64,000 bases of DNA from a phage. A model generated the notes under the pieces. It was not told the origin of the DNA and searched no databases. It was given only the letters and a program-made list of their open reading frames with translations. The stretch is from NCBI GenBank assembly GCA_018296565.1, contig GCA_018296565.1_3935.1; one strand, given 5' to 3'. Numbering within the stretch: position 1 is the stretch's first letter; every line of letters begins with the position of its first letter. Made by a program: the position numbers and the translations under genes. Positions 16,093 to 28,534 of the stretch are shown piece by piece.

Positions 16093-24102
<8,010 letters not shown>

Positions 24103-24104
24103 TA

Positions 24105-25277
24105 ATGGCAGTAGGTGAAATTCAAATTAGTGCCTTGCCTCAAGCAGCCTTGCCAATTGACCTTAGTGATATCTTCCATCTTAAGCAGGGTATTGAGGAT
24201 AAAAGGTGTACTCTTGAGCAATTACTTGCTCCACACTCAAGCCTAAGAAATAACCCTCATGGTGTTACTAAAACACAAATTGGTTTAGATAATGTTATTA
24301 ATGCTCTTCAGTTAGTCGCTGCAAATAACTTATCAGATATTGTTAATGTAGCTGAGGCAAGAGCAAATCTACAGATTATGTCTTCAGAAGAGGTTAATAA
24401 CCTTGTCCAACAACACATCAAGGACAAGAGTAACCCACACAATACAACTAAGGCACAGGTTGGCTTAAGTAATGTTCAGAACTGGACAACATCTGACCTT
24501 TATAATGAAGATGCAAATAAGTATGCTACAGCAAGAGCAGTAAATAACTTGTACAAGGCTGTTCAGGCTTCTTATCCAGTAGGTACTATTCATCTTTCTA
24601 TGAACTCTGCAAACCCTTCTACATACTTAATTTGTGGGGGTACTTGGGAGCTAGTTTCAAAGGGTAGAGCATTGGTTGGCTATGACTCTGACACAAGACC
24701 AGCAGGTTCTGTATTTGGTGCTTCAACTGTTACTTTGTCAGTTAATAATATGCCTCAGCACTCCCACTCTGTGTCTCTTAGTGGTGGTGGTCACACTCAT
24801 AGTGCCACTGTGTCAATTTCAGCTTTTGACTATGGAACTAAGACTACCAATTCTTTTGACTATGGAACAAAGACTACTAATACAACTGGTAATCATACAC
24901 ACAGTGTGTCAGGTAACACAAGTACAAACGGTACTCATGACCATGATGTGTACCCTAGAGAAAATGATGGTACTGGTAATGCTGTAGCTGACTCTGATGG
25001 TGGTGGTGCAAGAAGGACGTCAAGGACATCTAGTGACGGTGCACACTCACACAGTTTTAGCGTTACATCTGGTGCATCTGGTAACCACAGCCACACAGTC
25101 GGTATTGGTGCTCACAGCCACACAGTCGGCATCGGCTCACATACACACAGTGGTTCTGTAACAGTTTCTTCTTCTGAGCATACACACAGTGGGAACACAA
25201 ATAGTGTTGGTAGTGGACAAGCTTTCAATATTGAACAGCCATCCTTCGTACTATATGTATGGCAGAGAACAGCTTAA
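24105..25277 (+). CDS. Tail fibre protein with His-rich HxH repeat tip
   Basis: 390 aa; C-terminal half has repeated HSHS, GHTHS, HTHSVSG, HSHTVGIG motifs and a tandem duplication SFDYGTKTTN x2; C-terminus shared with the next gene. Confidence 0.6.
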   Translation: MAVGEIQISALPQAALPIDLSDIFHLKQGIEDKRCTLEQLLAPHSSLRNNPHGVTKTQIGLDNVINALQLVAANNLSDIVNVAEARANLQIMSSEEVNNLVQQHIKDKSNPHNTTKAQVGLSNVQNWTTSDLYNEDANKYATARAVNNLYKAVQASYPVGTIHLSMNSANPSTYLICGGTWELVSKGRALVGYDSDTRPAGSVFGASTVTLSVNNMPQHSHSVSLSGGGHTHSATVSISAFDYGTKTTNSFDYGTKTTNTTGNHTHSVSGNTSTNGTHDHDVYPRENDGTGNAVADSDGGGARRTSRTSSDGAHSHSFSVTSGASGNHSHTVGIGAHSHTVGIGSHTHSGSVTVSSSEHTHSGNTNSVGSGQAFNIEQPSFVLYVWQRTA

Positions 25278-25286
25278 TTTCTTTAC

Positions 25287-25308
25287 AGGGACTTTGTAGT
25301 CCCTTTTT
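25287..25308 (+). terminator. Rho-independent terminator between the two fibre genes
   Basis: Hairpin agggact-ttgt-agtccct followed by TTTTT. Confidence 0.6.
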
Positions 25309-25323
25309 AGAGGAAAATTTATA

Positions 25324-27855
25324 ATGGCAGATTACAAGTTGAGTGAATTAAACTCAATCGATACAATCCGTTCAGATGACCTTCTCCATGTCAGGGTTAA
25401 AAAGAGACCTGAAATGCTTGGTGATGAAGACCGTCGAATGACCTATCAAGACTTCTTAGCATCTTTTAAACTTGAAAGATTTGTTCAGATTGCTGGTAGC
25501 ACTATGACGGGTGACTTAGGGATTGTTAAGTTACTTTATGGTGGTAAGGTAGTATTTAACCCAACAGGCTCTTCTGAGATTAATATTGGGGATGTTTTAA
25601 AGACTTTTAAAATCAATGCAAATGGCCTTAAACTAACTATTGCAGATGCTTCAAGGTCGGCAACCGTTTATCATACTCTGAATAAGCCAAGTCCTAATGA
25701 GCTTGGTATGAGAACTAATGAAGAGAATGATGCAAGATATGCAAGACTTGCTGTAAATAACACCTTTAGAGGCACTCAAGCTATCCTCTCTGACAATGAA
25801 GCACTCATTATCAAAAATATCACTCAAGGTGCTCCACTCTATCTTCGTGGTCAAGATGCAGATGGTACTAACAGATGGTATCTAGGTAATGATAATAGGG
25901 GTACACATAATCTTGTATTAAAGAATGTAAAGTCCGACGTTTCAATTGCTATTTTAGAGAATTTGGTGACAGTCAACAGGACTCTTCAAATTGCTGGTCA
26001 AGTTCAACCTTCAAGTTTTGCTAACTTAGATGCTAGATATTTTACCCAGACAGTAGCTAATCAGAGGTTTGCACAGTTAGCTGGTAATAACACATTTAGT
26101 GGCTCTAATATTTTCACTAATTTTGTTGTTAAGAAGAACGCTAATGCTATTACTCTGCAAAATGTAGATACAACTGCTGCTTTGTATATCCAAGCAAGAA
26201 AATCAGATGGAGCTAATAAGTGGTACATTGGTAATGACGGTGATGAGAACATTGTAAACATCTATAACTATTTAGCAAAAACACAAATCTCATTAGGCAA
26301 CACCATTACCATGAGCAGAACAGTCCAAATTGGTGGTCAAGTTCAACCTTCTGATTGGGCTAACATTGACTCTAGATACATTCCAGCAGCTACTTTGAGT
26401 AATCTTGCTAAAATTAATGTGGCAAACACTTTTACAAATGTGCAGACTATTGTATCTAACAATGAAGGTCTAGTATTAAGGAACTTAACACAGGGACAGC
26501 CACAATATATCCGTGGTGTTGATACTGAGAATGTTTCTAGGTGGTGGTTAGGTATCGGTGGTCCAAACTCTAATGTGGTAACACTGAACAACAACTATTC
26601 TGACACTAAAATCTCACTTGGTGGCTCATCAGTAATGACTAATAAGAGTTTAGCTATTACTGGTCAAGTTCAGCCTTCAGATTGGTCTAACTTGGATGCT
26701 AGATACTTCACTCAAAGTGCTAGTGACGAGAGATATTTAAGAATCAGAAGCACAGGATTTAATTTAGGAAACGGTGAAAAGTGGGTTAAAATTGCTACTG
26801 TTGTGATGCCGCAATCAGCATCAACGGCAGTTATTGAGGTTTTTGGTGGCGCAGGGTTTAATATCAATACGCCAAACCAAGCAGGGAAGTGTGAGATTGT
26901 TTTACGAACATCAAATGGCAACCCAAAAGGTTTAAATGCCGTAGCTTGGAAAATCGCTGAGAATAACATCGTCAATGATATTGGTTATGTGAATACGTCT
27001 GGTGACACTTATGATATTTACTGTCGAGTTGGTTCGTACCAAAACGGTACAACATCAAGAGTTCAATCTTCTAGCAATGCAAGTGTGCAGTTGTTTGAAG
27101 TCCCACAAACATCTGATGATGCTCCACAAGGTATTGTAAAGGGTACAATCGCAAAATACTACACTAGTTTGCAAAAACCAACCCCTTCAGATATTGGTGC
27201 ATACACTAAAGCAGAGACTGACCAGAAAATTGCAGAAGCAATTAGTGACTCTACAGACCTTAATAAAATCTATCCAGTAGGTATTGTAACGTGGTTTAAC
27301 AGCAATGTTGACCCTAATACAGCACTTCCTGGGTTAACTTGGACGTACCTTAACAACGGTGTTGGTAGAACTATCAGAATCGCAGCAGCAAACGGTTCAG
27401 ATGTTGCTACAACAGGCGGCTCAGATTCTGTGACGTTAGCTGTTGGTAACTTACCATCACATACCCATAGTTTCTCTGCTACCACTTCATCTTTTGATTA
27501 TGGTACGAAGAACACTAATGGTACTGGTGCACACACTCACTCAGTTAGTGGTACTGCTGCAACTTCTGGGCAACACGCACACAGAATTTCACAGGGTGAC
27601 AACGCTAACGTTTCATCAGGTAGAGTCGCGTCTTCAAACTCTAGACAGACCCATGTTGGTTGGACTGAAAATGATGGTGCGCACACTCACTCAGTCAGTG
27701 GTACTGCTGCATCTGCTGGCGACCATGCTCACTCTGTAGGTATTGGTGCTCACAGTCACACAGTTAGTGGTAACACTGGTGGCACAGGTTCTGGTTCAGC
27801 ATTTAGTGTCACTAACCAGTTCTACAAGTTGATGGCTTGGGTGAGAACTGCTTAA
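25324..27855 (+). CDS. Long tail fibre protein with His-rich HxH repeat tip
   Basis: 843 aa; internal repeats (TLQIAGQVQPSxFANLDARYFTQ recurring about 4 times); C-terminal region parallels that of the 24105 gene. Confidence 0.65.
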   Translation: MADYKLSELNSIDTIRSDDLLHVRVKKRPEMLGDEDRRMTYQDFLASFKLERFVQIAGSTMTGDLGIVKLLYGGKVVFNPTGSSEINIGDVLKTFKINANGLKLTIADASRSATVYHTLNKPSPNELGMRTNEENDARYARLAVNNTFRGTQAILSDNEALIIKNITQGAPLYLRGQDADGTNRWYLGNDNRGTHNLVLKNVKSDVSIAILENLVTVNRTLQIAGQVQPSSFANLDARYFTQTVANQRFAQLAGNNTFSGSNIFTNFVVKKNANAITLQNVDTTAALYIQARKSDGANKWYIGNDGDENIVNIYNYLAKTQISLGNTITMSRTVQIGGQVQPSDWANIDSRYIPAATLSNLAKINVANTFTNVQTIVSNNEGLVLRNLTQGQPQYIRGVDTENVSRWWLGIGGPNSNVVTLNNNYSDTKISLGGSSVMTNKSLAITGQVQPSDWSNLDARYFTQSASDERYLRIRSTGFNLGNGEKWVKIATVVMPQSASTAVIEVFGGAGFNINTPNQAGKCEIVLRTSNGNPKGLNAVAWKIAENNIVNDIGYVNTSGDTYDIYCRVGSYQNGTTSRVQSSSNASVQLFEVPQTSDDAPQGIVKGTIAKYYTSLQKPTPSDIGAYTKAETDQKIAEAISDSTDLNKIYPVGIVTWFNSNVDPNTALPGLTWTYLNNGVGRTIRIAAANGSDVATTGGSDSVTLAVGNLPSHTHSFSATTSSFDYGTKNTNGTGAHTHSVSGTAATSGQHAHRISQGDNANVSSGRVASSNSRQTHVGWTENDGAHTHSVSGTAASAGDHAHSVGIGAHSHTVSGNTGGTGSGSAFSVTNQFYKLMAWVRTA

Positions 27856-27934: not shown

Positions 27935-28129
27935 ATGCCTACAATCCTAGCAATTCTTCTAAAAAATCTAGGTAGCTTCTTCTGGAAACTCATTTTATCC
28001 CTTCTAAGTGAATACATGATTGAGAAAGTGTTCTTTAGGCTTGCAAGATACCTTGCGAGTAAAACAGACACACCTATTGATGATGAGTTCGTAGATAACT
28101 TAGAAAAAGCTTTTAAGGGGGAGAAATAA
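27935..28129 (+). CDS. Small membrane protein (holin-like candidate)
   Basis: 64 aa, one hydrophobic segment (ILAILLKNLGSFFWKLILSLL), charged C-terminus, gaggtga RBS; located after tail fibre genes. Confidence 0.4.
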   Translation: MPTILAILLKNLGSFFWKLILSLLSEYMIEKVFFRLARYLASKTDTPIDDEFVDNLEKAFKGEK

Positions 28130-28501
28130 ATGAGGTGGCTAGAGGAAGCTTTTAAAAATAATATTGGTGCAATTGTAGTTGGTATTTTTAGTGTTATTGG
28201 AATGTATACCACCATGCAAGTTTCGGATGGTAAGCAAGAGGTGTCTATCACAACAAAATTACAGCAGCTAGATAATTACAGTAAATCTAATTACTCAGCT
28301 ATTCGTGATTTACAGTCTGACATGAGATTGCTTCAGTTAGGGATGGAGAACCAGAAAGTTCAGTTAGAGAATGTTAAGGGTGAGAACGCAAAACTTACTA
28401 AAACTCTTGATAAATTCTCTGACAGTGTGAACAATCTGGCTCAATCGGTATCAGCCTTGCAAGCTATTACTGAAAAGAACACAAAGAATACTGGAAAATA
28501 A
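28130..28501 (+). CDS. Membrane-anchored coiled-coil protein (spanin-like candidate)
   Basis: 123 aa, N-terminal TM (IGAIVVGIFSVIGMY) then heptad-rich helical region. Confidence 0.35.
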   Translation: MRWLEEAFKNNIGAIVVGIFSVIGMYTTMQVSDGKQEVSITTKLQQLDNYSKSNYSAIRDLQSDMRLLQLGMENQKVQLENVKGENAKLTKTLDKFSDSVNNLAQSVSALQAITEKNTKNTGK

Positions 28502-28508
28502 AATTTAA

Positions 28509-28534
28509 GGCTCCCGTAAAAAGGAGCCTTTTTT
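28509..28534. terminator. Terminator at the late(+)/early(-) convergence point
   Basis: Hairpin ggctcc-cgtaaaaa-ggagcc flanked by T-run on + strand; sits between convergent genes. Confidence 0.6.

Follow-up and report, generated by a model that had tools for sequence, protein, structure and literature searches.

The two genes occupying positions 24105-27855 of the window (the whole 64,000-nucleotide stretch of phage DNA analysed) very probably encode a pair of Felixounavirus tail fibres, each bearing a receptor-binding tip of the T4 gp37 type; on this reading a short tandem duplication in the shorter gene is old and fixed, and host range evolves mainly by recombination. This reading is founded on observed homology, motif positions, repeat anatomy, mosaic structure and a repeat-number rule; trimer formation, metal binding, receptor contact and layer geometry are attributed by analogy with T4 and Bas63. 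The two-fibre architecture with gp37-type tips is correct but already described, for VpaE1 and Bas63, and the locus is an ordinary case of it, the n/n+1 tracking of the two limbs of the tip being one small addition to the known picture. The region in itself has little new consequence, confirming what is published, namely that two fibres with the metal-stapled tip of T4 gp37 type are carried by Felix O1-like phages.

Megablast of the window returned 230 Felixounavirus-type records, among them Escherichia phage EcoM2 at 97.6% DNA identity, and on this evidence from sequence the phage is assigned to Felixounavirus (Felix O1-like myophages; a coliphage) with EcoM2 as its nearest relative. The preliminary description of two tail fibre genes was confirmed by two co-oriented open reading frames with exact boundaries, with which phrog matches and the annotation of relatives agreed:

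24105..25277, + strand: STF (short tail fibre) gene, 390 aa; open reading frame, phrog_2097 tail fiber (E 1e-135).
25324..27855, + strand: LTF (long tail fibre) gene, 843 aa; open reading frame, full-length match to phrog_4277.

The STF gene corresponds to Bas63 gp26, VpaE1 gp74 and wV8 gene 82, its orthologues in EcoM2, wV8 and VpaE1 carrying a tail fiber annotation, and the LTF gene to Bas63 gp27, VpaE1 gp75 and wV8 gene 83. Gene order proved the same in EcoM2, VpaE1_ev108, wV8 and VpaE1, with matching lengths, and the pair follows baseplate wedge genes (489 and 285 aa), the position it has in Bas63 and VpaE1. The two open reading frames downstream (64 aa and 123 aa) matched no named family in Pfam or phrog, and NCBIfam yielded no match for the STF, the LTF or the flanking small reading frames. 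Folding of the T4 tip is helped by the chaperones gp38 and gp57A; a scan of the flanking reading frames detected no gp38-like gene adjoining the fibre genes, which is a difference from T4. A promoter and terminator scan of the region gave sites not above chance expectation, the sole terminator-like hairpin lying at 28507-28530, and did not detect in the window the terminator annotated in wV8 between the two fibre genes.

phmmer searches conducted against the T4 tip structure 2XGF matched residues 145-362 of the STF (E 8.9e-29) and residues 708-822 of the LTF (E 7e-19). The successive elements of the shorter protein were delimited as follows:

24234..24482, + strand: STF shaft; two motif copies, helical here in the AF2 model.
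24564..24749, + strand: STF collar (gp10/gp12/gp37 D10-like), about aa 154-215; Pfam PF21939 Gp10_C and T4 gp10 structures.
24750..24953, + strand: STF needle descending limb; HxH at aa 219, 230, 264 and 278.
24954..25040, + strand: STF head (tip), about aa 284-312; aligns with the T4 head region of 2XGF.
25041..25199, + strand: STF needle ascending limb; HxH at aa 314, 328, 337, 346 and 359.
25200..25274, + strand: C-terminal strand of the STF, returning to the collar (…GQAFNIEQPSFVLYVWQRTA); homologue conservation and AF2.

Within the shaft the motif H-x5-NPHxxTKxQxGLxNVxN occurs twice, at aa 44-66 and aa 104-126 (a spacing of 60 aa), a pair whose local alignment scored z = 10 against shuffles. 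The collar was recognised by Pfam PF21939 (E 3.6e-17; 64 bits against a cut-off of 27), matched T4 gp10 structures, was modelled at an AF2 pLDDT of 85-90, and is completed by the C-terminal strand, which is nearly invariant among 58 homologues (AF2 strand 380-388, pLDDT ~86). Two FDYGTKTTN decapeptides (aa 241-260) lie in the descending limb, while the head, with pLDDT <50 in the AF2 monomer, is a lineage-specific variable segment the flanks of which are kept among homologues.

Equivalent elements were evident in the LTF, preceded by a shaft of three repeats and a central domain:

25732..26697, + strand: three LTF shaft repeats; Pfam PF20744 gp37_trimer x3 (E 5e-59).
26705..27200, + strand: LTF central beta-sandwich domain, about aa 462-625; identity profile and protein alignment.
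27262..27447, + strand: LTF collar, about aa 647-708; PF21939 and alignment with the STF collar.
27448..27588, + strand: LTF needle descending limb; HxH at aa 713, 737 and 751.
27589..27678, + strand: LTF head, about aa 756-785; variable cassette.
27679..27771, + strand: LTF needle ascending limb; HxH at aa 787, 801 and 810.
27772..27852, + strand: LTF C-terminal return strand (…GSAFSVTNQFYKLMAWVRTA); invariant in five relatives.

The preliminary description had given this gene four or more repeats of roughly 60 residues; what was found instead was three repeats of 100-113 aa, at aa 137-236 (100 aa), 237-349 (113 aa) and 350-458 (109 aa), with pairwise identities of 31-42% and each closing with GQVQPSxxxN[LI]D[AS]RY. 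They were delimited by motif-anchored segmentation and a repeat HMM, which confirmed three copies, a BLASTP self-search having given only the full self-match, and PF20744 likewise covered three stretches (196.9 bits; cut-off 21.7). A fourth or fifth repeat, or sub-repeats of ~55 aa, when sought gave z <2, save for a shared ARYFTQ linker motif. The central domain was modelled as all-beta (AF2 pTM 0.68) with a Foldseek match to 6TGF (E 5.5e-7). The collar, invariant in five relatives and alignable with that of the STF, scored slightly below the 27-bit cut-off of PF21939 (E 6e-5; 24.4 bits); the descending limb contains a single FDYGTKNTN decapeptide, and the ascending limb a Pfam PF03335 Phage_fiber repeat (aa 783-795). 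It was additionally observed that the LTF head is flanked on both sides by a 58-nt direct repeat, a feature absent from the preliminary description.

The order of descending limb, head, ascending limb and C-terminal strand along both sequences fits a fold-back topology. By analogy with T4 and Bas63, each fibre would be a homotrimer docked by its N-terminus on the baseplate and ending in a collar and then a needle, in which each chain would run down to the tip and back, with the head at the turn presumably contacting the receptor, which for the genus would be LPS. One HxH from each of the three chains would place six His around one metal ion on the fibre axis (iron in T4), and were all motifs so used, the STF needle is predicted to contain nine metal layers and that of the LTF six. 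Descending FDYGTKxTxx decapeptides would fill those layers where the ascending limb gives a HxHxVxIG unit, and needle length would change only if both limbs gained or lost units in step; it is from this putative constraint that the 30-bp duplication considered below would be an old, fixed structural repeat and no live slippage site. Host range would evolve mainly by recombination with other phages, which would exchange, at conserved flanks, the head together with the distal part of the needle and, for the LTF, the central beta-sandwich domain as well.

Two tandem arrays, one in each limb of the STF needle, are relevant to this scheme:

24823..24881, + strand: 30-bp tandem repeat, 2.0 copies, 93% matches; TRF and repeat search.
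25086..25151, + strand: 27-bp tandem repeat, 2.5 copies, encoding HSHTVGIG(A/S); TRF.

The first had been reported as a perfect duplication of 10 residues and as a possible slippage hotspot. The duplication is present, but it is not perfect: its copies match at 28/30 nt and in the frame then used read AFDYGTKTTN and SFDYGTKTTN, the nine residues FDYGTKTTN being common to both and encoded with two synonymous differences. The second array, which had escaped earlier notice, is the counterpart on the ascending limb of the array of decapeptides. The proposal that the 30-bp duplication is a recent product of slippage, and an active contingency locus through which copy number and thereby host range shift, might draw on the 93% DNA identity of adjacent copies and on a copy number that runs from 1 to 4 over the wider family; it nevertheless seems distinctly improbable in view of the synonymous divergence of the copies and the occurrence in T4 gp37 of the same two-copy element (DLGTKTTS/SFDYGTKGTN). 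The suggested comparison of copy number, made among relatives, pointed in the same direction: by a strict motif, almost every cluster representative with an identity of 84% or more had two copies, the sole exception (P0015) having a diverged first copy, and protein length was unchanged in the 45 cluster members listed. Copy number was found to differ only between divergent lineages, and there together with the opposite limb, from which it follows that a one-sided change should shift the hairpin out of register. The slippage hotspot was consequently set aside in favour of an old, fixed structural repeat.

The co-variation of the limbs could be expressed numerically. In 165 of 197 distinct tips, taken as is with shared ancestry uncorrected and counted by regular expression, the run of HxH motifs at 9-aa spacing was longer by one than the count of period-10 decapeptides, giving the classes (decapeptide, HxH run) (0,1), (1,2), (2,3), (3,4) and (4,5); in the other 32 the rule failed. 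We tentatively propose, at somewhat under even odds, that the needle is a modular stack in which n descending FDYGTKxTxx units are answered by n+1 tandem ascending HxHxVxIG units, length changing only by matched repeats. A statement of this rule was not found in the accessible papers; the Bas63 paper offers, as a suggestion only, that longer needles may have more motifs (PMC12609058). Were the rule true, the sequence of a T-even, Felix O1-like or lambdoid fibre would directly reveal its reach and its number of metal sites (five to at least nine), and it could guide the choice of needle-length edits likely to fold.

Alignment of the two C-terminal domains, the check proposed at the outset, established their homology (BLASTP: 39% identity over 190 aa, E 5e-29). 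Modular exchange of tips, which had been suggested from their likeness, was upheld with respect to the fibres of other phages, but not between the two genes of the window. Recent copying or conversion between STF and LTF within the genome would account for their common domain order and shared short motifs (SFDYGTK, HSHTVGIGAHSHTV), but is very improbable when the tips are only 39% identical in amino acids, when no long stretch of DNA is common to the two genes (the longest being 29-34 nt at 65-88% identity), when the needles are three layers apart with unrelated heads, and when each gene is far nearer to its orthologue in other phages; no relative with STF and LTF tips nearly identical in DNA was encountered among the loci examined.

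Exchange with other phages was by comparison readily apparent. The LTF of the window is EcoM2-like or identical except in its central domain, a recombinant cassette that resembles wV8 and bears no relation to what EcoM2 has at that position; homologues of this cassette occur in T-even gp37 and in the side tail fibres of E. coli prophages. Between conserved FDYGTK and HxHSVGIGAH junctions are set head cassettes, of which there are at least five types: the LTF head of the window is common to EcoM2 and VpaE1_ev108, and is replaced in wV8 and in VpaE1, the head of the latter being of T4 type and ~90% identical to that of T4 gp37 (hand count over the printed alignment). The junctions SSFDYGTK and HxHSVGIGAHSHTV, along with the central-domain boundaries, mark natural swaps of receptor-binding cassettes, and both the junctions and the repeat rule have some practical use in host-range engineering and annotation.

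The HxH motifs themselves numbered nine in the STF, where shuffles would lead one to expect 1.4, and six in the LTF, where 0.28 would be expected; these counts were reached in 0/20,000 shuffles, and the motifs were divided between descending and ascending limbs as 4 + 5 and 3 + 3, respectively. All seven HxH motifs of T4 aligned with HxH motifs of the STF and six with those of the LTF, STF H278/H280 aligning with T4 H929/H931, which are named iron ligands (PMC6957217) in a tip where HxH triplets from three chains hold seven iron ions (PMC6957217; PMC12609058). These alignments and enrichments, together with the homology to 2XGF, bore out the original suggestion that the His-rich C-termini are tips of the T4 long-tail-fibre type. 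That the region is instead a biased Ser/Thr/Gly/His linker with incidental HxH spacing and no metal binding, as might be supposed from the predominance of S, T, G and H in the needle regions and the low confidence there of the AF2 monomer, has a very low probability given the position-by-position homology to a crystallised iron-binding needle, the occurrence of 18/18 STF needle His in HxH pairs (~2 pairs expected in composition-preserving shuffles), and the near-invariance of these His in 58 homologues.

The AF2 monomer of the STF (58-sequence alignment; pLDDT 67, pTM 0.31) exhibited strands on both limbs at low confidence, and Foldseek with this model returned no match in the PDB at E <= 0.001, 2XGF not being recovered, and below threshold nothing beyond pore toxins with long beta-hairpins and some weak matches to gp10. 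Because a single-chain model is uninformative for an intertwined trimer, the reading of the STF tip rests on its homology to 2XGF. A phmmer search of the PDB with the wV8 LTF C-terminus gave no match, which is probably due to its different head type.

Compared with the T4 gp37 tip (2XGF; D10 collar, D11 needle and head), the window fibres follow the same succession, from the collar through a descending limb to the head and back by an ascending limb and a return strand, and share its FDYGTK and HxHxVGIGAH elements. They differ in that the STF has two extra collar-proximal HxH motifs, one per limb and without structural precedent, bringing its total to nine; in that the LTF has one layer fewer, lacking the seventh T4 motif and one decapeptide; in head sequences unrelated to that of T4; and in that the tip is part of a single short polypeptide, whereas in T4 it ends a four-protein fibre.

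Closer still are VpaE1, whose gp74 and gp75 were reported in 2015 as homologous to the T4 gp37 adhesin (PMC4690856), and Bas63, for which cryo-EM in 2025 described collar, needle, HxH motifs and head in both the STF (gp26) and the LTF (gp27) (PMC12609058). The genes are orthologous, occupy the same position and share the two-fibre design with gp37-like tips. However, seven HxH motifs were reported for the Bas63 STF against nine in that of the window, and five beta-helix repeat domains for the Bas63 LTF against three repeats detectable by sequence here (PMC12609058); the window LTF is further set apart from both phages by its central domain, which is of wV8 type, and its head, which is of EcoM2 type. 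A third likeness is to the Stf of E. coli lambdoid prophages (Pfam Collar PF07484, Phage_fiber PF03335 and Phage_fiber_2 PF03406), in which a central beta-sandwich is likewise followed by collar, needle and head, at 39-44% identity. These proteins differ in N-terminal attachment and shaft, and in their siphovirus or prophage contexts; some Felixounavirus LTFs carry head types that also occur in prophage fibres.

Megablast of 24105-27855 returned matches to 230 phage records, nearly all of them Felixounavirus phages of Escherichia, Salmonella or Shigella, with Escherichia phage EcoM2 as the best match (97.6% identity). The annotated regions of EcoM2, VpaE1_ev108, wV8 and VpaE1 have a gene order in common, in which two baseplate wedge genes (489 and 285 aa) are followed by a 100-aa gene, tail fibre genes of ~390 aa and then 783-848 aa, two small genes and, on the opposite strand, thymidylate synthase; the window ORFs were found to be exactly the same set, and a Pfam match to Baseplate_J in the 489-aa protein supported the baseplate context. 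Both fibre ORFs of the preliminary description were recovered, together with an adjoining smaller ORF:

23800-24102, 100-aa ORF between the 285-aa wedge gene and STF (phrog_4141, no named function)
24105-25277, short tail fibre gene, STF (390 aa)
25324-27855, long tail fibre gene, LTF (843 aa)

From synteny (gene order and neighbour lengths), the 100-aa ORF would be the counterpart of Bas63 gp25, a T4 gp9-like long-fibre platform.

The region encodes a routine, well-described pair of felixounavirus tail fibres, one short and one long, whose tips are of the T4 gp37 type. A 2015 paper noted BLASTP homology between the T4 adhesin and gp74 and gp75 of VpaE1, a close relative (PMC4690856). For the felixounavirus Bas63, a cryo-EM paper of 2025 described an STF (gp26) and an LTF (gp27) with a six-stranded needle, formed as the chain folds back on itself (PMC12609058); the architecture of the two window fibres is already in print for both phages. 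The additions made here are modest, namely an indicative matched-repeat (n, n+1) rule for needle length and precise mosaic boundaries in this isolate.

Alignment of the two C-termini confirmed their homology (39% identity across 190 residues, E 5e-29), and each end was rich in His-x-His (HxH) motifs, with nine in STF and six in LTF; composition-preserving shuffles gave means of 1.4 and 0.28 respectively, and reached the observed counts in none of 20,000 trials. All 18 His residues of the STF needle were paired as HxH. The central interpretation of these ends as gp37-type HxH tips was borne out by homology to 2XGF, the crystallised T4 gp37 tip, which matched STF aa 145-362 (E 8.9e-29) in an alignment covering collar, descending limb, head and ascending limb, and LTF aa 708-822 (E 7e-19). 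The collar, Pfam PF21939 (Gp10_C), was clear in STF and just below threshold in LTF. Each of the seven T4 HxH motifs aligned with an STF motif, H278/H280 being aligned to T4 H929/H931, described by Islam et al. (PMC6957217) as ligands of one of the seven irons in the needle. Relative to T4 gp37, STF has two more collar-adjacent motifs, H219/H221 on the descending limb and H359/H361 on the ascending limb, whereas LTF is without the seventh T4 motif and one decapeptide (FDYGTKxTxx). An AF2 monomer model of STF was of low confidence, as expected of an obligate intertwined trimer, and a fold search with it was uninformative; the hairpin topology and metal sites proposed for the window fibres are those that homology would predict.

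By the same homology each fibre would be a trimer: HxH motifs from the three chains would together supply six His to hold a metal ion on the axis, and contact with the receptor would be made by the head, where the chain turns back. The receptor reported for this genus is LPS, not protein (PMC8594841, PMC4690856).

From the collar, the descending limb of STF comprises two HxH motifs, a spacer, two decapeptides and two further HxH motifs, while the ascending limb, from the head, comprises HxH, a spacer, three HxH units 9 residues apart, a second spacer and HxH; this order sets the decapeptides opposite the tandem HxHxVxIG units. Tandem Repeats Finder located an array in each limb:

24823-24881, 30-bp unit x2.0, 93% matches (decapeptides)
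25086-25151, 27-bp unit x2.5, encoding HSHTVGIG(A/S) (ascending limb)

The 27-bp array, absent from the preliminary description, is the counterpart, on the ascending limb, of the 30-bp array. When 197 distinct gp37-type tips from two database searches (homologues P0001-P0239 plus the window STF and LTF) were scored by regular expression, ignoring shared ancestry, the 9-residue-spaced HxH run exceeded the number of period-10 decapeptides by one in 165.

Tips per class (decapeptides, tandem HxH units)
(0,1): 15
(1,2): 43, including the window LTF
(2,3): 83, the class of the window STF and of T4 gp37
(3,4): 15
(4,5): 9

This n/n+1 relationship, indicative only, is what a hairpin with its two limbs kept in register would require.

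The 30-bp array had been described as a perfect 10-residue duplication and a possible slippage hotspot. The tandem repeat is present, but near-perfect: the shared peptide is FDYGTKTTN, the first copy starting with A rather than S in the frame originally used, and the two coding copies lie two synonymous changes apart. The evidence speaks against a present-day hotspot: synonymous differences already separate the copies, a homologous pair (DLGTKTTS/SFDYGTKGTN) occupies the same place in T4 gp37, and, among cluster representatives with 84% or more identity to the window STF, two strict-motif copies occur in all but one, P0015, whose first copy has diverged. Nor did length differ from that of the representative in any of the 45 sequences listed for three large clusters (of 266, 347 and 259 members). 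Copy numbers of 1, 3 or 4 were confined to lineages at or below ~75% identity, where the repeat units have diverged too, with corresponding changes in the ascending limb.

For the LTF shaft, the four or more ~60-residue repeats previously proposed gave way to three longer ones, of 100, 113 and 109 aa (aa 137-236, 237-349 and 350-458), each a Pfam PF20744 match terminating in GQVQPSxxxN[LI]D[AS]RY, with pairwise identities of 31-42%; no further copies or half-length sub-repeats were detectable in LTF. In the STF shaft, H-x5-NPHxxTKxQxGLxNVxN occurs twice (24234-24482, aa 44-126; alignment z = 10) with a 60-residue spacing that may be the source of the 60-residue repeat, assigned to the wrong gene.

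Modular exchange, also proposed earlier, was evident with other phages but not between the STF and LTF of this genome, which share no DNA stretch beyond 29-34 nt at 65-88% identity. A 100-bp identity profile placed the boundaries as follows:

22605 to ~26300, 99-100% identical to EcoM2
~26300 to ~26700, 86-94% identical to EcoM2
26705-27200, unrelated to EcoM2 (20-44%), 79-95% identical to wV8
3' of 27200, EcoM2-like again
27505-27700, second LTF cassette (distal needle and head), shared by EcoM2 and VpaE1_ev108, replaced in wV8 and VpaE1

Judged by this profile, 26705-27200 is a recombinant cassette within LTF, corresponding by protein alignment to aa ~462-625 and 60 residues longer in its window/wV8 form than in EcoM2. 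Its domain has homologues among the distal gp37 subunits of T-even phages (33-49% identity) and the side tail fibres of E. coli prophages; an AF2 model (pLDDT 74, pTM 0.68) predicted an all-beta sandwich resembling a domain of the tailspike-like protein WceF (6TGF, E 5.5e-7, TM 0.53) and a domain of Acinetobacter phage tailspikes. In VpaE1, the distal needle and head (4601-5071 of locus L004) closely matched T4 gp37 ~897-990 (E 2e-48 against 2XGF; ~90% identity counted over the printed alignment), which suggests that this cassette passed between Felix O1-like and T4-like phages fairly recently. LTF homologues carried at least five head types, always between SSFDYGTK and HxHSVGIGAHSHTV. In the window LTF a 58-nt direct repeat, 84% identical and encoding GAHTHSVSGTAA..G.HAH, also flanks the head-coding segment (27525-27582 and 27675-27732), and might offer a substrate for deleting or duplicating the head or exchanging it as a cassette.

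Two conserved small ORFs 3' of LTF, of 64 aa (27935-28129) and 123 aa (28130-28501), matched no named family; both have a hydrophobic N-terminus, joined in the longer by a coiled coil, and 3' of them lies a bidirectional terminator-like hairpin (28507-28530).
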